Assembly (NCBI GenBank): GCA_963805625.1
Contig: CAWDVE010000014.1
Coordinates: 148,299-212,298 of the forward strand
Source of the DNA: an uncultured Candidatus Rokubacteria bacterium
GTDB taxonomy: Bacteria > Methylomirabilota > Methylomirabilia > Rokubacteriales > DASRDR01
Length of the DNA stretch: 64,000 nucleotides
Direction of reading: 5' to 3'
This document shows positions 9,422-19,821 of the stretch, piece by piece; within the stretch, counting starts at the first letter, position 1, and every line of letters starts with the position of its first letter. Made by a program: the position numbers and the translations under genes. The notes under the pieces are model-generated. The model saw only the letters and a program-made list of their open reading frames with translations. It searched no databases and was not told where the DNA came from.

Positions 9422-11080
9422 CTACGCGCCCAGCCGGTCGAAGACGTTACGCGTGATGCGCTCGACGAACATGTCGCCTCCCTGCAGGCCGTACGCCCAT
9501 TCGGTCGAGCCGCAGTTGAAGACCGTCCCCTTGCCCCGGCTGAAGGCGACCATGGCCGCGGTGCCGTACCGGTACTTCTCCAGCCCCGCCGGCGTGACCG
9601 TCCCGTCGAGCTGGCGCACGACCGCCTCCAGGTCCCGCTGGTCCCACATCACGTCGCGCTCGCCGGACGGCCGCTCCCCGAGCGACGCGGGCGCCAGGGC
9701 CAGGATCTCGGTGGTCATGGGCGCGCCGTCGCGGCCGGTCGGGTACGGCAAGCCATGCCGCGTCACGAAGTCGAGCCCATCGCACTCGTAGCCGACGATC
9801 CGGTCCCGGTCGCCGAAGACGTCGCCGTACTCCAGCTGGGTGCCGGCGAACACCCAGTGAGCGGGGCGGTACACCATGTAGCCGCCAGAGGAGCGCGGCA
9901 TGACGTAGCCCAAGCGGTGGTAGCCGCCGCGGGTGAAGGACAGGCCAAAGGTCTGGTTCTCGGGCCGCCCCGTGCGCGGGTTCGACCACATGCCGGTCAG
10001 GTACTTCTCCTGCGCGGTGCCATAGACGGGGTCGAACTCCGGCACGTACTTGTAGCAGACCATGTCCTGGCCGCCGTTCTCCAGCCGCACCTGCCAGAAC
10101 GCGGCGTTGCCGATGAAGAACGCCGCGTGCCCGCCGGCAGCGACGAAGTCGTCCACCACATCGCGCTCCTGCCACGTCCAGTACTCGTCGTGCCCGACCG
10201 TCGTCAGCATGCGGTACCCATCCACTACCCCGGGGTCGCTGTCCAGGTCGCCCTGCACGCAGTAGTCCAGCGCGTAGCCATTGGCTTCCATCCACGGGAC
10301 GAAGATCGACTCCCACGTGTGGAAGCCCGCGAACCGCGTCCAGTGGTGGTAGCCCTGCTGGACGTGGCGTGGGAACGCGTCGACGAGCGGACGCTCGCCG
10401 AAACCCGGGGTACCCGTGTTGGTGTTGCGAATGGTGCTCGGCACCCGGTGCAGCAGGCCGCGCTGCCACGGCCGCTGGAACGACAGCCGGCACGCCACCG
10501 AGCGGTCGTCGCTCGCGTAGAGGCACTTGCCCCCCCAGGCGTTGTAGGCGGCATAGGTGTTGGTGGACAGGACCATCAGGATCTTCGCCACGCGCTTCCG
10601 GGCAGGCGCGCGCACGACGAAGAAGTGGTCCCACTCGAGAGGCTCGCCCTTGGCGTCCTCCGCGCGCAGCGTCACCGCGTAGTAGCCCGACCGCCAGTCC
10701 CTCGGGATCCGGAACGCGAAGCCGTCCGGCCACCCGCAGCCGCGGCCGAACGCCTCGGGCGGCGTCGGATGGAGGGCGCCCCGAATGCCGCTCCGTGTGT
10801 ACACGAGGTCGCGCCCAGCACCGACCCGCGCGATCTCGATCGAGTATCGCGACGCGGAGGTGGAGGTGTGGAACCGCACCTCGTCGCCCGGCAGGTAGCT
10901 CAGCCGGTCCGTGTAGCACCAGAGGCCGCGCTCGCCGGGCCGGGTGAGACGGTCGTTGTCGGTGCCGACCAGCTTGATGATGAGGCTCAGCCGTCCGGGC
11001 GGTGGCATGTAGGACACCGCATCGGCCGGAGGCCGCTGGGCGACCAGCGCCGCGCGCGGGTCACGTTTCCGCTGGGTCAT
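9422..11080 (-). CDS. N,N-dimethylformamidase beta-subunit family protein
   Basis: YTDRLSY, TNTYAAYNAWGG, SFQRPW, GHDEYW, GNAAFWQVR, VGYECDG, VFNCGSTEW. Confidence 0.85.
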   Translation of the reverse strand: MTQRKRDPRAALVAQRPPADAVSYMPPPGRLSLIIKLVGTDNDRLTRPGERGLWCYTDRLSYLPGDEVRFHTSTSASRYSIEIARVGAGRDLVYTRSGIRGALHPTPPEAFGRGCGWPDGFAFRIPRDWRSGYYAVTLRAEDAKGEPLEWDHFFVVRAPARKRVAKILMVLSTNTYAAYNAWGGKCLYASDDRSVACRLSFQRPWQRGLLHRVPSTIRNTNTGTPGFGERPLVDAFPRHVQQGYHHWTRFAGFHTWESIFVPWMEANGYALDYCVQGDLDSDPGVVDGYRMLTTVGHDEYWTWQERDVVDDFVAAGGHAAFFIGNAAFWQVRLENGGQDMVCYKYVPEFDPVYGTAQEKYLTGMWSNPRTGRPENQTFGLSFTRGGYHRLGYVMPRSSGGYMVYRPAHWVFAGTQLEYGDVFGDRDRIVGYECDGLDFVTRHGLPYPTGRDGAPMTTEILALAPASLGERPSGERDVMWDQRDLEAVVRQLDGTVTPAGLEKYRYGTAAMVAFSRGKGTVFNCGSTEWAYGLQGGDMFVERITRNVFDRLGA

Positions 11081-11350
11081 CGCGTGAGCTCCCCGGTCCG
11101 AGGCGTGCACGTCAGGGCGGCGTCCACCGTGGCGCCACCGTCACGTCGCTTCTACTCGGTCATCCGGACCGATGCAAGAGCCTCCGCCGGCGGCGCCGCT
11201 CTCTCCCGCGTCACCGGCCCCTGTCCCGGGCGCCGGCCCGAAGCGTCAGGCACCGCAGGATGCTCGCGACGTCGGCCGGACCATAATCGCGACACGATGC
11301 TTCCGCGCGGCCCACGACATCACCGCATCCCTGGAAGGAAGCCTCACAAG

Positions 11351-12360: not shown

Positions 12361-13617
12361 TCAGGCGGGTTCGCGGCGTGCTGGTCCCTCGTCGATCAGA
12401 TAGCTGAAGCGGGCGACGAACTCCTTCTCGCCGAGCCCGCTCGCCGCGGCGAGGGCCGCCAGTTGCTGCGGGCGCTCGAAGTCCTCGCGCTTGAGGCGGA
12501 TCATGTACGCGTAGAGCGTCCGGTAGGCCTCGGACGACACATCCGCATAGCGGAGCCGTACGCGGCCGGTCCGAGGATCGAGCAGCTCGCGGAAGGGAAC
12601 CGGGACCAGTCGCCCACCCTGGATGGTCACCATCGCCTCGGTGCCGCCGTCGAGGAGGAAGCGGGTCGCCGCGTAGCCGAGACTTCGCGCGTACTGGGTG
12701 TCGTAACCGCCGGGCGGCGCGCAGCGCAGCTCGTAGCCGAGGTCCTTGGCCGCGATGGCGATCTCGATGCCGCGGGCGGCGAGGCTGGCCGACACCCGGT
12801 CCTTGAGGCTGCGCGCGAGCTCCAGATCCGCCAGCCGGACGTTGCCGTAGGTGTCGTAGGACACCGAGCCCACGGTCTCGGGATCGAGCTTCTCCAGGAT
12901 GCCTTCGGCCAGGAGCGCGACCCCGTGCTGGCGTCCGTGGGCGCGCCGCTTGATGATCGCGCCCTCGAGGATGTCCGCGACCTGCGCCAGCGGCACGCGG
13001 GCGCCCGGGAACTCCTCGCCGACCAGCATCAGGGTCGCGCCGGCGGCGCCGCCGATCCCGAGGGTGAGGTGACCCGCATGGCGGCCCATCACGGTCACGA
13101 AGAACCACTTCTCCGTGGTCGCGGCATCCTGCATCAGGTTCCGCACCAGGTCCTTGCCGAGGTTGACCGCGGTCACGAAACCGAAGGTCGGGACGTCGTC
13201 CGGCAACGGCAGGTCGTTGTCGATGGTCTTGGGGACGTGGGCCACGGCGAGCCGCCCCGCGAGCGCCGCCGCGATCTGCGCGCTGGCGAAGGCGGTGTCG
13301 TTCCCGCCGATGGTCACCAGGTAGGAGACCTCCAGCTGGCGGAGGCTCTCGGCCACCCGGCGGAGCGACTCCGCCGACTGCGTCGGGTTCGCGCGCGACG
13401 TGCGGAGGATCGAGCCGCCCTCGAAGTGGATCTGCGACACCTCGTTGATGTCCAGCTCCTGGACGTGCGAGAGGTCGCCGCGCATCAGCCACTTGTAGCC
13501 GTCGAGGAGCCCGACCGCCCGCAGGCCCTGATTGCGGGCCTCGATCGCGGCGGCCGCGATGACCGCATTGATACCCGGAGCCGGCCCGCCACCGACCAGG
13601 ATCGCGAGGGTCTTCAC
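12361..13617 (-). CDS. pfp: 6-phosphofructokinase, probably PPi-dependent
   Basis: GGGPAPGIN, GGNDT (Asp at the specificity position), PKTIDND, MGR, GYELR. Confidence 0.88.
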   Translation of the reverse strand: MKTLAILVGGGPAPGINAVIAAAAIEARNQGLRAVGLLDGYKWLMRGDLSHVQELDINEVSQIHFEGGSILRTSRANPTQSAESLRRVAESLRQLEVSYLVTIGGNDTAFASAQIAAALAGRLAVAHVPKTIDNDLPLPDDVPTFGFVTAVNLGKDLVRNLMQDAATTEKWFFVTVMGRHAGHLTLGIGGAAGATLMLVGEEFPGARVPLAQVADILEGAIIKRRAHGRQHGVALLAEGILEKLDPETVGSVSYDTYGNVRLADLELARSLKDRVSASLAARGIEIAIAAKDLGYELRCAPPGGYDTQYARSLGYAATRFLLDGGTEAMVTIQGGRLVPVPFRELLDPRTGRVRLRYADVSSEAYRTLYAYMIRLKREDFERPQQLAALAAASGLGEKEFVARFSYLIDEGPARREPA

Positions 13618-13656
13618 GAGCGGAGTCTGCCTACCATGTCCGCTGGGCCGCGCCGG

Positions 13657-14682
13657 TCACGCGACGGTGCGCTCCAGGTCGGGGGTGTACTGCCCGCGCC
13701 GGGCGGCGCCGTTCATGCGAGCGCGGTGGTAGAAGGCCTGCTGCCCGGCCGCGACCCGCGTCGGATCCCCCCGCCACGCCCGGATCGCCGATTCCTGGAG
13801 CGCGCGCCCGTAGGAAAAGCTGAGAGCCCACGGATGCGACATCCCGGGCGCGTTCATCGCGTTCAGGTGGGCGGTGGCCCGCTCCTCGCTCTGGCCGCCA
13901 GAGAGGAACACCATGCCCGGCACCGCCGCCGGGACCGCGCGCCTGAGACAGCCGACGGTCGCCGCCGCCACCTCGGGGACGCCGGCCTGGCGAGCGCATT
14001 CCTTGCCGGACAGCACCATGTTCGGCTTGAGGAGCATCCCCTCGAGCGCCACCCCTTGCTTGCGGAGAGTGTGGAACACCGCCTCGAGCGTGGTCTCGGT
14101 CGCCTCGAAGCAGCGCTCGATGGTGTGGTTCCCGTCCATCAGAACCTCGGGCTCGACGATCGGCACCACCCCCGCCTCCTGGCACAGGGCCGCGTAGCGA
14201 GCGAGCGCGTGGGCATTGACCTGAATTGCCCGATCCGTGGGAAGGCCGGGACCGATCGAGATCACCGCGCGCCACTTGGCGAAGCGGGCCCCCAGCGCGG
14301 CGTACTCGGCAAGCCGCTCGCGCAGGCCGTCGAGACCTTCCGTCACCTGCTCTCCGGGCGCGCCCGCGAGCGGCTTCGCGCCCCGGTCGACCTTGATGCC
14401 CGGAATGATCCCCTGGCGCGCGAGGACCTCGACCAGCGGCGTCCCGTCGTCCGCCTTCTGGCGGATCGTCTCGTCGAAGAGGATGACCCCGCTCACGTAC
14501 TCCGCCACCTTCGGCGTGCTGAGGAGCATCTGGCGGTAGCAGCGGCGGGTCTCCTCGGTGTTCGGGATGCCCACAGCCTCGAAGCGGCGGCCGATGCTGG
14601 GATGACTCTCGTCGGCGGCGAGGATGCCTTTACCCGGCGAGACCAGGGCGCGGGCCGTGGCCTCCAGTCTTTCCGCGTTCAT
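13657..14682 (-). CDS. fba: Class I fructose-bisphosphate aldolase (animal/plant-type family)
   Basis: GKGILAADES, FAKWRAV, PIVEPEV, Schiff-base LLKPNMV, FLSGGQS, FSYGRALQ. Confidence 0.95.
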   Translation of the reverse strand: MNAERLEATARALVSPGKGILAADESHPSIGRRFEAVGIPNTEETRRCYRQMLLSTPKVAEYVSGVILFDETIRQKADDGTPLVEVLARQGIIPGIKVDRGAKPLAGAPGEQVTEGLDGLRERLAEYAALGARFAKWRAVISIGPGLPTDRAIQVNAHALARYAALCQEAGVVPIVEPEVLMDGNHTIERCFEATETTLEAVFHTLRKQGVALEGMLLKPNMVLSGKECARQAGVPEVAAATVGCLRRAVPAAVPGMVFLSGGQSEERATAHLNAMNAPGMSHPWALSFSYGRALQESAIRAWRGDPTRVAAGQQAFYHRARMNGAARRGQYTPDLERTVA

Positions 14683-15362: not shown

Positions 15363-16178
15363 TCACCTGCCCTGGGGCTCCCACATCAGGATCTCCCCCT
15401 TGCCCAGGCCCGACGTGTCCCCCGTATACCGCTGATAGATTCCGTCTCCCACCTCCGGAGGCATCGGGAATCCGAGCGTCCACAGGTGCCGGGCGTAGAC
15501 GCGCAAGAACGTCGGCCGATACGCGCAGTCGTACGCGAAGGTCGGCAAGAGGTGGATCGGCGTCAGCGAGACGATCGTGCCGCGCGCCATCCAGGCGCCC
15601 GTCCGGATCTCGGCGCCCCCGAGCAGGAAGATCGTGCCGCCCTTCATCTGCAGCCCGGCGAAGTCGCGCACGGGACCGGCGACGGCGATGATGCCGCGCC
15701 TCATGCGCATGCCTACCTCGATGCCCGCCGAGCCCTCGATGAGAATCGTGCCCTGGTTCATCCCCTTCGGACTGCCCCGATAGGCAGCCCCGACCTGCCC
15801 GCCGGCATTCCCGCGAATGCGGATCAGGCCTCCCGTCATCTCGGCGCCCAGCCAGTCCGAGACGTTCCCGGTCACCTCGATGGTGCCGCCCTTCATGGAG
15901 GCACCGAGATGCATGCCGACGTCTCCGACGATGCTGACGCGGCCCCGCGTCATGCCGCGGCCGATCCACTTGACCTTCCCGAGGTCGCCGCGGATCGCGA
16001 GCTCGTCGCTGGCCGCACCCTCGATGTCGAAGAAATCCTCGAGGCGATGCTGCCGCTTCCCCAGGAGCACCGGCAAGCCGCGGATCGCGTCGCGGGTGAG
16101 CCCCGCCGTCACGTCGGGCGAGAGGCTCTCCGCCTCGAGGGGTACGGTCGGCTGCTCCTTCAGCGTGAGCGTGATCAT
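15363..16178 (-). CDS. fwdC: Formylmethanofuran dehydrogenase subunit C
   Basis: PLEAESLSPD, GXGXG beta-helix repeats (GMHLGASMKGG, GAEMTGG, GMRMRRG), C-terminal YTGD..GKGEIL. Confidence 0.95.
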   Translation of the reverse strand: MITLTLKEQPTVPLEAESLSPDVTAGLTRDAIRGLPVLLGKRQHRLEDFFDIEGAASDELAIRGDLGKVKWIGRGMTRGRVSIVGDVGMHLGASMKGGTIEVTGNVSDWLGAEMTGGLIRIRGNAGGQVGAAYRGSPKGMNQGTILIEGSAGIEVGMRMRRGIIAVAGPVRDFAGLQMKGGTIFLLGGAEIRTGAWMARGTIVSLTPIHLLPTFAYDCAYRPTFLRVYARHLWTLGFPMPPEVGDGIYQRYTGDTSGLGKGEILMWEPQGR

Positions 16179-16242: not shown

Positions 16243-17877
16243 TCAGGCGCGCGCCCGGCACTCGGCGAGCTGCAGGCCGTGGACGCGCTCCGCCTCGACC
16301 GGATAGTTGTCGAACGACATCGTGTAGCACTGCTGGAACACCGGGCGCAGGTACTCCTCGATCTGGGCGTCGTAGGCCGGGTGGACGACGAACTGTCTTC
16401 CCTCGACCACCGCCCTCACCTGACCCTCCTCGACCACGATCTCCCCGCCCTTGATGACGTAGCGCGGCGACTTGAACAGCGCCACGCCCTCGGGTCTCTC
16501 GTGGTAGATCGCCACGTCGGCGTCCGCGCCCACGCCGAGGTGCCCCTTCTGTGAGAGTCCGAGCGCTCGTGCGGGCCCCGCGGACGTGATGGTCACGATC
16601 TCGGAGAGCGTGTACTGGCGGTCCAGATCGGCCAGGACGGTCCGCTTGAGCGCCTTCGGAGGCAGGGTCTTCACCCGCTCCCGGCGGTAGTCCACGTCCA
16701 TCAGGAGCTGGACGATCTCGGAGTAGCGCCAGAACCCGCCCCCGTTGGGATGGTCGGTCGTGAGGAAGATCCGCCACGGGTCGGTGATCAGGAGCAGGAG
16801 CTCGAGGCCCACCGCCCACTGCACGGCGTTGACCAGGCTGCTCTTCTTGTAGACGTACGGCACGATCCCGCAGCCGGTCTCGTTCTCGACGTCGAGGTTG
16901 CCCCACTTGCGTCCGGTGAGCTCGTGGAGCAGGTGCTGCCACGGTCCGTCGGCGGTGATCGTCATGGCCTTCCCGAACAGGATGGCACCGGCGTCGGCGG
17001 TGAGGGCGGGATGCGCGTTGAAGTACTCGGCGATCGTGGCCGTCTCGGAGCGAATCGTGGACCAGTCGTCGCCGCCGTACGCGTGGAACTGGAGATGCGC
17101 CATGTGGGCGCGGCGTCCCTCCAGGATCTTCATGGTCTCGAGGGTCGTCGCGACGTTGCCGGGCATGCCCAGGTTGTTGCAGTGGAGGTGGAGCGGGTGC
17201 GGCAGGCCCAGCTCGTCGATGATGCTCGCGAGGCTGGCGATGATCCGGGCCGGCGTCACCTTCTGGTAGCCTTCCACCGGATCGGAGAGGCTCCTGGCGT
17301 TCTTGCCCCACTTCCAGGCGGCCACGCCGCCGGGGTTGACGGCTTTCACACCGTAGGTCTTCGCCGCCCAGATGAGCCAGGCCACGACGTGACTGGCGCG
17401 CTCGGTCTCCCCGGCCTCGAGGAGGTCCATGACGATCTCGTTGTTCGCCATCAGGAGCAGGCAGGCCTTGTCGACGATCGGCGTGTCGCGGAGCTCCTCG
17501 TGGGTGTGCTTGGCGCTCAGGACCGGGACCGCCGCCTCTGTCACCGTTGTGTAGCCCATCCCCGCGTATAGGTAGCCGGTGGCGAAGGTCGTGGGCATCA
17601 GCCCGCCGAGGCCCATCCGGCGCTCCGGCGTGTGCAGAAACGGCAGGCCCTGGCGTTGGGTTTCCGGGCTCATCGCCCGGGCGAAGTTGAGCGCGGCACC
17701 CGCCACGTGGGTGTGGATGTCGACCCCGCCGGGGAAGACGACCATGCCGGTCGCGTCGATCCTGCGGCCGCCGGGGACGTCGGAAACGATCCGTCCGTCC
17801 GAAATGCAGACATCCCGGACCTCACCGTCGACGTGGTTGGCGGGGTCGTAGACCTTCCCGCCCGTGATGCGCAGCAT
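16243..17877 (-). CDS. fwdA: Formylmethanofuran dehydrogenase subunit A (amidohydrolase)
   Basis: GGVDIHTHVAG, GVKAVNPGG, HLHCNNLG, HLQFHAY, TTDHPNG; binuclear metal ligands intact. Confidence 0.95.
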   Translation of the reverse strand: MLRITGGKVYDPANHVDGEVRDVCISDGRIVSDVPGGRRIDATGMVVFPGGVDIHTHVAGAALNFARAMSPETQRQGLPFLHTPERRMGLGGLMPTTFATGYLYAGMGYTTVTEAAVPVLSAKHTHEELRDTPIVDKACLLLMANNEIVMDLLEAGETERASHVVAWLIWAAKTYGVKAVNPGGVAAWKWGKNARSLSDPVEGYQKVTPARIIASLASIIDELGLPHPLHLHCNNLGMPGNVATTLETMKILEGRRAHMAHLQFHAYGGDDWSTIRSETATIAEYFNAHPALTADAGAILFGKAMTITADGPWQHLLHELTGRKWGNLDVENETGCGIVPYVYKKSSLVNAVQWAVGLELLLLITDPWRIFLTTDHPNGGGFWRYSEIVQLLMDVDYRRERVKTLPPKALKRTVLADLDRQYTLSEIVTITSAGPARALGLSQKGHLGVGADADVAIYHERPEGVALFKSPRYVIKGGEIVVEEGQVRAVVEGRQFVVHPAYDAQIEEYLRPVFQQCYTMSFDNYPVEAERVHGLQLAECRARA

Positions 17878-17883
17878 CGACCT

Positions 17884-19215
17884 CTAGGCCGAGAGCGGTG
17901 TGCCGTTCGAGGCCGGCGTCCAGGGCGGCTTGGCGGCGGCGGCCTGGCGGATGCGGCGAAGGACTTCCTCGTCCGTCGGATACGGCGAGCGCAGCGCCGG
18001 CCGGAGCGGCAGCGGCATCTCGTCCATGCGATACACCGTGCCGGGCGCGCTGATCCCCGTCGCCGCCGTGGTGATGTGCACGCGCGCCAGCCGGCTGGTG
18101 TGGGTCACCTTGGGGTCCAGCACGATCGTCGGAATGCGCTTCAGGTGCTCGATGGCCGGCTGCGGCATCGTGGCCCCGGGATCGGCGCCCAGGATCAGCG
18201 CGGCGTCGTTGTCGCCGCGGACGAGCAGATCCACCGTCGAGAACTCGCCCGGATTGAAGCGCGGGTAGCCGCGCGACAGGTTCACCCCGAACGGATACCC
18301 GGTCGTCCAGCGGATGACCATGTCGGCACCGGTCACGTTGCCGTGACCCCGCATCGGCATGGCCACGAACTTGGTGAAGGCGTTCAGCTCCGTCACCAGG
18401 GTCAGGACCGACGCGGAGTTCATGTGCTTGCCCCGCGTCATCGACAGACCCATGCCGAAGAAGAGCACGCCGAACCGGGCGCGCTTCATCCGGTCGACGA
18501 GGTCCTGCAGCTGCTCGACGGTCACGCCGGTCTCCGCCACGCGCTCGGGGTTCACCGGCCGGCCCTTGAGCAGCGCGAGCAGGGTGGTGACGACCTCGAA
18601 GTCCTTGCCGGGCTGGATCTGGAGGAACATGTCGGCCGCCTGCGCGCTCGGGGTCTCGCGGATGTCCACGAGGACCATCGTCCGGTCCTTGCGGCCCTGC
18701 GGCACGAACTTGCCCTTCTGGGTCAGGGTGTACTTGGTGAAGTGCCGCGGGTGGCATTCCGCCGGGTTGCCGCCCCAGTAGATGATGAAGTCGGCGCGGT
18801 TCTTCACTTCGCCCAGCGTGCACGTCACCTTGCCCCCCAACTGGGCGGCTATCTCAGTGGGACCGTGTCAGAGGGAGGTGTGACTGTCGATCACGCCTCC
18901 GACCAGCTCGGCCAGGCCGACGGCTTCCCGCTGAGCTTCGCAGGTGATGTTGCTGAGCCCGTAGACCAGCGGCATGTGGGCGTCGTAGAGGAAGCTCGCC
19001 GCCGCCTCGACCGCCGCGTCGACCGTGGCCGGCTTCCCGTCGATCAGCGCGTCCGGGAAGAGCCGCTCGGCCGTGTGGTTCTGGAACCAGGCGTCGCCCA
19101 GGCTGCAGGCGTTCTTGCTCTTGACGATCCGGTCACCCTCGGCGTGGAGCTCGATGTCGTCGCACACGCACCCGCAGAAGGTGCACGTCGCGTTCTTCAC
19201 GATGGTGACGGTCAT
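17884..19215 (-). CDS. fwdB: Formylmethanofuran dehydrogenase subunit B, selenocysteine-containing (443 aa, Sec116)
   Basis: ORFs 18868-19215 and 17884-18840 are in the same frame; the TGA at 18868-18870 gives SL-U-HGP at the conserved CHGP W/Mo ligand; N-terminal CTFCGCVCDD Fe-S motif; PMRGHGNV. Confidence 0.92.
18832..18849 (-). promoter_or_regulatory. Candidate bacterial SECIS for fwdB
   Basis: GCCGCCC-AGUU-GGGGGGC hairpin (one G-G mismatch) starting 18 nt after the UGA; unusual codons (ACT, ATA, TTG) for this GC content. Confidence 0.55.
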
Positions 19216-19436
19216 CCGTCGCTCGCTTCCGGTCCGTCCTCCCGCCCCAGCCGGGGCGGCATGACGAAGGTTCAGCCAAGCTCCCGGCCCGGAAAGCTGC
19301 CCCGGGTCCGGAGCGGGCGGTAGCGACCAGTCTCGACCAGCTCCCAGGCCGGGGCGCGCTCCGTCACCGGAGCTACCGGAGGCGTCGCCTCCTCGCCGCT
19401 CGCCCGCGAATCGTCGGGCAACCCTGCCGCAGCCAT
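19212..19436 (-). CDS. Candidate 74-aa selenoprotein of unknown function (RELG-U-TFVMPP)
   Basis: RBS GGGAGAGGGAG and ATG at 19436; in-frame TGA at 19272-19274 with a downstream hairpin; the read-through stop overlaps the fwdB ATG (ATGA). Confidence 0.55.
19242..19259 (-). promoter_or_regulatory. Candidate SECIS for the small ORF
   Basis: Perfect 7-bp stem CCGCCCC/GGGGCGG with a GGCU loop, 12 nt after the UGA. Confidence 0.55.
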
Positions 19437-19464: not shown

Positions 19465-19821
19465 CTACCCTGACGCCGGACCTTCGGACCCGACGGGCTC
19501 GACCTCGACTTCCCAGCCCTTCGACGTGGGCATCCCGGTCCCGTCGGTGCCGCCGCCCATGAGCCGGCAGGTGGGGGGGCCATATGGGACGAAGATCATC
19601 CCCAAGGGCACCTTCCCCTCAGTGCACTTGAAAGTGGCCTCACCGTACGGGGTCCGAACCTGGACACTTCCGCCCTGAGCGATGCCGACCGCCTTCATGT
19701 CCTCGGGATGCATCGTCAAGGTGCTCACGATGGCCTGGTACTCGGGGTAGTCTTTGCCCACGTTGACCTGCAGACCCTGCTTGGTCGTGCGACCGGCGTT
19801 CATGATGAACCGCTTGCCCAT
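19465..19821 (-). CDS. fwdD: Formylmethanofuran dehydrogenase subunit D (molybdopterin-dinucleotide binding)
   Basis: GRTTKQG, MHPEDM, GMIFVPYGP, TDGTGMPTSKG. Confidence 0.9.
   Translation of the reverse strand: MGKRFIMNAGRTTKQGLQVNVGKDYPEYQAIVSTLTMHPEDMKAVGIAQGGSVQVRTPYGEATFKCTEGKVPLGMIFVPYGPPTCRLMGGGTDGTGMPTSKGWEVEVEPVGSEGPASG

Follow-up and report, generated by a model that had tools for sequence, protein, structure and literature searches.

The window, a 64,000-nt stretch of a Rokubacteria contig, carries on its minus strand a formylmethanofuran dehydrogenase (fwd) operon in which a small gene lies between fwdD and fwdB (Table 1). As stated in a preliminary description of this DNA, the small gene opens with an ATG (19436–19434) preceded immediately by a GGGAG run, extends for 54 codons to a TGA (19274–19272), is followed 12 nt past this TGA by the hairpin CCGCCCC-GGCT-GGGGCGG (19259–19242) and continues for 19 further codons to a TGA (19214–19212) that overlaps the ATG of fwdB (19215–19213); the read-through product likewise agrees with the sequence given there. 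A lower CCUUC/GGAGG stem, which had been suggested as an extension of the hairpin, is present in the computed fold of the source genome, but relatives do not conserve its 3' side. The ATGA overlap had been taken as a type of coupling that recurs in the window; the other junctions of the fwd operon are instead gaps of 28, 6 and 64 nt, with no overlaps. The in-frame TGA of fwdB stands where Cys-type relatives have Cys.

Table 1. Features of the fwd operon and their positions in the window.
Feature	Position	Strand	Remark
Small gene	19212..19436	minus	74 aa with UGA as Sec, 54 aa otherwise; relatives found
Conserved 24-residue core, Trp31–Gly54	19275..19346	minus	beta-hairpin at residues 31–41 predicted (AlphaFold2)
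In-frame TGA, putative Sec55	19272..19274	minus	TGA kept across relatives
Thr-Phe and two hydrophobic residues 3' of UGA	19260..19271	minus	codon-level selection
SECIS-type hairpin	19242..19259	minus	comparative tests and consensus model of PMC13188914
ATGA overlap of small gene and fwdB	19212..19215	minus	not universal among relatives
fwdD (molybdopterin dinucleotide-binding domain)	19465..19821	minus	PF01568 above cut-off; NF042908 below cut-off
fwdB, in-frame TGA at 18870–18868	17884..19215	minus	TIGR03129, 509 bits (cut-off 327.8)
Own SECIS-type hairpin of fwdB, loop AGTT	18832..18849	minus	weak fold in source genome
fwdA-like amidohydrolase	16243..17877	minus	PF07969; subunit name putative (family and gene order)
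fwdC-like GXGXG protein	15363..16178	minus	PF01493; subunit name putative (family and gene order)

The sel genes, which the preliminary description had named as a point to be checked, are found in the source genome: tRNA-Sec (selC), selA and selD are present, and selB is present in two frames, split at a C6G5 run (G000:C21:223609-225488). Since selB scored above the cut-off in all five other carriers tested, the split is likely to be an assembly indel. A rough whole-genome scan (G000) gave 48 TGA read-through candidates, many of which presumably resemble selenoproteins by motif (thioredoxin-like UxxC, UGSC and AhpD-like CxxU), and the source genome seems to be rich in selenoproteins. The genes fae, mtd, ftr and mch are found in the same genome on another contig.

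Relatives of the small gene were found in four phyla (Methylomirabilota, Acidobacteriota, Planctomycetota and Gemmatimonadota), and the gene is present at all eight Sec-fwdB loci found in the source genus; a whole-genome search found no paralogue elsewhere in the source genome. Scanning species genomes yielded 34 loci (Rokubacteria, Acidobacteriota, Planctomycetota and Gemmatimonadota), the metagenome scan confirmed at least 372 stretches, of which 80 were kept for analysis, and the protein searches returned 754 entries (the best 120 listed) and 156 entries (150 listed). These relatives are non-independent samples, and locus counts are not convertible to probabilities. Three weak profile matches in Planctomycetota (L168–L170) lack the core and were excluded. 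In 100 distinct loci, 11 of the 24 residues preceding the UGA are invariant, and the pairwise differences in this core comprise 41354 synonymous versus 19019 non-synonymous changes. Judged by this conservation, the small gene is a real, conserved and widespread gene. Its own ATG or GTG start is found in 53 loci, of which 48 have a start-to-UGA length of 49–56 codons, and 45 loci have no start of their own; the end of fwdD contains a TTG in its +1 frame at 43 of these 45 loci versus eight of the 53, and the starts are thus also under selection. A programmed frameshift from fwdD was discarded as a general explanation, each of the three phases being represented (55, 28 and 12 of 95). In an AlphaFold2 model of the product, confidence is restricted to residues 31–41 and the mean pLDDT is 57. 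At two loci (L058 and L117) the variable arm between fwdD and the core contains insertions of short repeated elements, and the frame stays open; in G008 (L009/L062) both the start frame and the fwdB overlap are broken, possibly by assembly indels. Contigs of relatives from RNA libraries cover the core and the fwdB start in three of four runs and are not taken as evidence of expression; none of the RNA-library runs contained half of the words sought.

At the codon aligned with the UGA, TGA is found in all 114 loci, whose final stops are TGA in 89, TAA in 13 and TAG in 12, and also in all 58 matches among the 401 Pirellulaceae genomes (30 of 30 of those read codon by codon) and in 21 of 21 matches among 211 Planctomycetia genomes, these three sets sharing some members. 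Neither TAA nor TAG occurs at this codon in any locus read. The UGA is followed by Thr in 97 and then by Phe (+2) in all of 100 distinct loci, and the pairwise differences at +1/+2 are 3429 synonymous and 293 non-synonymous, compared with 995 and 17785, respectively, at +11 to +14. This pattern of substitutions shows that codon-level selection acts on both sides of the UGA, the 3' side being short, at about four residues before the stem. The two checks on relatives that had been proposed therefore turned out in favour of read-through: the TGA is fixed while true stops vary, and conservation extends past it into the Thr-Phe pair. Among the 150 listed proteins, one Cys and one Trp occur at the UGA site, each from a single short contig. 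The Cys form (P0131), on a contig of 1068 nt, could be a base error, and its frame continues past the site; the Trp form may come from the code choice of the gene caller. In the DNA loci read no Cys was found at the site, one of the scan patterns being able to capture Cys forms.

The simplest alternative is that the UGA is a true stop, so that the product is a protein of 54 aa and the hairpin serves solely to bind SelB or to protect the mRNA. Gene callers do end the protein at the UGA in 120 of 120 and 148 of 150 listed entries, and the single hairpin has no significance by itself, but such a stop would have to be reconciled with the exclusion of TAA and TAG from the loci read, with codon-level selection at +1/+2, with a Cys form that stays in frame and with fwdB overlaps that keep the read-through register, and we consider it very improbable. 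The register is kept over 11 spacings, which supports read-through, although it is also what ordinary operon packing would give.

The evidence for the hairpin is comparative, since at the 69% GC of the source genome the hairpin alone lies within chance (z = −1.55). By a test of our own criteria, in which the distance window was chosen after the family had been seen, a SECIS-type hairpin is found in 103 of 114 loci versus 49 of 1500 true TGA stops of the source genome. The stem sequence differs in Pirellulaceae, and double-sided stem changes exceed those in all 500 shuffles, so that the covariation that had been proposed as a check is observed among the relatives; the +3 slide control gave a covariation score of 0.195 versus 0.208, yet 58% versus 98% paired. 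The bacterial SECIS consensus has a loop of 3–9 nt with G in one of the first two places, lies 16–37 nt past the UGA and has a stem of at least four pairs and an energy below −7.5 kcal/mol (PMC13188914, section 5); the hairpin of the small gene fits it in loop, distance, stem and energy, with no difference found, and would function as a putative SECIS. In the hairpin of fwdB, the loop codons are CAG-TTG in every one of 146 contexts, TTG being one of 39 Leu codons in the source fwdB; in the source genome it contains a G–G mismatch and its fold has z = +1.0. The sections of PMC4807772 covered here give no SECIS for this fwdB/fmdB gene type. Considering the fixed TGA, the conservation downstream of it, the covarying hairpin and the sel genes of the genome, the earlier proposal of a Sec-containing product of an unrecognized family is well supported, and a selenoprotein is very probably made from the small gene, as far as sequence comparison can tell.

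The small gene accompanies one type of FwdB. Among 61 fwdB-like loci, it was found at all 16 of this Sec type (54–74 bits) and was absent at the other 45 (at most 1.3 bits), which include Cys-type operons and one locus (L180) from an unpublished genome (G510), on which no conclusion rests. In Pirellulaceae, 58 of the 401 genomes carry the small gene, including, among the matches listed and apart from 102 weaker ones, 55 of the 55 genomes with a near-full-length FwdB of the clade, and in a quick tree 24 carriers fall on one branch with a support of 100. The searches thus show a strict co-occurrence of the small gene with one FwdB clade in the genomes covered, and it is likely that the family is a new selenoprotein family tied to this bacterial Sec-FwdB clade. 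Two Sec-fwdB loci of the Methylomirabilis family lack the small gene, and fwdD abuts fwdB there; since these and the Cys-type operons do without it, the small gene is not generally needed. The FwdB encoded downstream of the small gene has TGA at its Sec site in 96 of 97 readable loci and Gly (GGA) in one (L093:1138-2421), where the small gene keeps its TGA; the Gly is either a real change or a base error. At L205 and L208 (Methylomirabilota family f13) the Sec-FwdB is of another, distinct type, in which fwdD and fwdB overlap directly and the small gene is absent. Some carriers of the Sec type additionally hold a Cys-type fwdB, and at the right ends of L046, L051 and L053 a second fwdB-like gene (62–66% identical) lies on the opposite strand just past the Sec-type operon, possibly a Cys isoform.

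No known protein was found to match the product in sequence. No family in Pfam or NCBIfam matched it at E up to 1, and no PDB sequence matched it at E up to 10. Profile comparison, which covered FwdD and both parts of FwdB, gave an hhalign probability below 1%; the earlier statement that the product is not one of the known Fwd/Fmd/Fhc subunits agrees with these PDB sequence and FwdD/FwdB profile comparisons. A placement of the core on the FwdD N-terminus by MAFFT was rejected, as hhalign gave no support for it, as was a likeness of the U-T-F motif to the C-T-F of FwdB (four columns, P = 0.09). Table 1 of PMC13188914, which lists 119 prokaryotic selenoprotein families (2026), has no entry like it, and a literature search, chiefly outside subscription journals, found no description of the family.

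Two roles had been proposed for the small gene, a Sec-containing accessory subunit and a leader; a new accessory protein fits the comparative data better, whereas a leader is not a feature of the family. According to the leader proposal, ribosomes arrive at the fwdB start and couple to it only once Sec has been inserted, and synthesis of FwdB would thereby follow the selenium supply. This would suit the small gene being seen only before Sec-type fwdB, the overlap with fwdB in 55 of 108 measurable loci (gap of at most 20 nt in 87 of 108), the SD-like word ahead of fwdB in only 20 of these 55 overlap loci and the additional Cys-type fwdB of some genomes. However, the SD share is similar in control overlap genes (56 of 166), the overlap is found in only two of 29 Pirellulaceae loci and about one of 21 further Planctomycetia loci, and gaps reach 376 nt, with an inserted gene. 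The opening energy of the fwdB start shifts by medians of 0.85 and 1.2 versus 1.15 kcal/mol in controls, and by 0.3 kcal/mol in the source genome; comparison of opening energies, of terminated versus read-through states and of control genes found no start-hiding RNA switch at fwdB. Coupling also leaves the 24-residue core unexplained, and G1085 keeps an intact small gene away from fwdB. In this genome one contig carries ftr, fwdD, the small gene with its TGA and hairpin and then a CinA-like gene, while a second carries Sec-fwdB and fwdA and shows no remnant of the small gene; the split lies inside two large contigs, and the copy could be a recent relic. On the short contig L148 there is no fwdB within 350 nt past the small gene, and split operons are represented by these two cases, one genome and one contig. 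At L063 another ORF of about 90 aa, which we take to resemble a HicB antitoxin, lies between the small gene and fwdB. L218 speaks against the accessory protein instead, as the small gene there is 1372 nt away from fwdD but still beside fwdB. The claim of a leader coupled to fwdB is thus weak, and we regard it as unlikely for the family as a whole; a secondary effect of coupling may exist in overlapping loci.

The small gene could act on expression without the overlap if the core stalled the ribosome at the UGA and polarity then set downstream transcription or mRNA stability. Ribosome-stalling peptides look alike in having a core of about 25 residues that ends at the stall codon and a conserved start-to-stop length; the invariant residues here fall in the 24 codons ahead of the UGA, and the start-to-UGA length is narrow, as given above. 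Selenium-dependent translation coupling has been reported for fdhF-Sec of Treponema primitia (PMC3892789), and, as there and in TnaC, UGA decoding here could likewise affect downstream genes. Such a sensor is nevertheless improbable, given that no terminator-like site was found on the coding strand, T-runs occur in none of 54 overlap spacers and in 11 of 73 other spacers, selection also acts on residues past the UGA, the core tolerates internal insertions and the next gene in G1085 is the CinA-like gene. A comparable E. coli system is selAB, with a SECIS-like element in the 5'-UTR. In contrast to such selenium-responsive and leader-peptide systems, the small gene lies inside an operon, has a conserved protein core, shows neither a terminator nor a start-hiding switch and persists apart from fwdB.

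We therefore return to the accessory protein. A role as a protein is supported by two-residue insertions that four entries of the 150 listed proteins carry where the beta-hairpin is predicted to turn, by the Cys form, by an extra N-terminal motif common to the Pirellulaceae members and by an entry of 138 aa in which FwdD is fused to the core via about six residues (five contigs), the fusion and the Cys form each being a single record known from a protein entry rather than from DNA. It is also supported by the independence of the small gene from the position of fwdB in G1085 and L148 and by the intervening gene in L063. On balance, the product is probably a small accessory selenoprotein that works as a protein with Fwd, at the FwdB/FwdD module. 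SelB would bind the hairpin and Sec would be inserted at the UGA, giving a mostly disordered arm of 25–30 residues, then a short core that forms a beta-hairpin, and after it the Sec and a tail that varies. The core may dock on FwdD/FwdB and bring the selenol near the Mo/W centre, where it may activate or protect the centre or relay electrons to it, accompanied in about a quarter of members by a Cys seven residues upstream. A more specific and tentative version is that the dedicated Sec peptide gives the Mo/W formylmethanofuran dehydrogenase a second selenium, either as a docked selenol/selenenyl-sulfide relay or as a donor of a Se ligand; a Cys-Sec relay described for HdrA (PMC13518236) is cited as an analogy. 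If true, the DMSO-reductase superfamily would gain a new kind of subunit or maturation factor.

The product might instead be a sacrificial selenium carrier that passes Se on to the Mo/W centre or undergoes processing, the core serving as a recognition leader. The near absence of Cys in place of Sec (one of 150 listed proteins and none of the DNA loci read), the tail without constraint past +6 in 100 distinct loci and the presence of Cys at −7 (38 of 157 loci, 41 of 141 representatives) would agree with such a carrier, Phe and Tyr, each one base from Cys, being equally common or commoner at −7. Against it, among 51 flanking ORFs scanned at 14 loci no protease or modifying enzyme was a repeated neighbour of the operon, and the FwdB of L093 with Gly at its Sec site is still accompanied by the small gene; a carrier role thus seems unlikely, and the accessory protein is retained as the working model.

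Among the closest known arrangements is that of the planctomycete P2, for which an fmdD-fmdB(Sec)-fmdA-fmdC operon is given in S9 Table of PMC4807772; the gene order and the Sec-containing B subunit in a bacterium are the same as here, whereas the candidate table has fmdB and no small selenoprotein, the comparison being with the table and not with the DNA of P2. The main text of PMC13326102, as far as it bears on this subject, does not name the enzyme. A small Sec-containing subunit is known in VhuU of the F420-nonreducing hydrogenase of Methanococcus (PMC2933860; PMC13188914, Table 1), a small selenoprotein within a larger metalloenzyme of the same kind as the working model. However, VhuU is classed with the large subunit of the hydrogenase and contains a UxxC motif (PMC13188914), whereas the product of the small gene has none. 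A split subunit of this type is not encountered here: FwdB is full length, and profile comparison gave no significant match with either FwdB or FwdD. VhuU itself is a split-off C-terminus of the hydrogenase large subunit.

No relatives of the family are known and its Cys forms are almost absent, so that searches relying on pairs of Cys and Sec would overlook it; its product stands in databases shortened at the UGA. The small gene is a marker of a bacterial Sec-FwdB clade that is widespread in soil and aquatic settings and tied to H4MPT-linked one-carbon metabolism. According to a 2026 review (PMC13188914), it is not known what Se does in FwdB, and a dedicated second selenoprotein would be a direct handle on this. 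As 58 of 401 genomes of the Pirellulaceae, a family with cultured members, are carriers, the small gene should be testable.

The flanks of the 14 scanned loci hold mostly H4MPT-pathway genes or unrelated ones. Further downstream in the window, the strand of the operon also carries a dimethylformamidase-like gene, a phosphofructokinase and a class I aldolase (9422–11110 and 12361–14682). An aldolase is close to the Sec-fwdB operon in L038 too, where fdhD lies 3' of fwdC. Formate-dehydrogenase-like and Nuo51-domain genes are divergent from fwdD in L035 (3954–4295) and L039 (701–4111), and the formate-dehydrogenase-like gene of L035 has an in-frame TGA.
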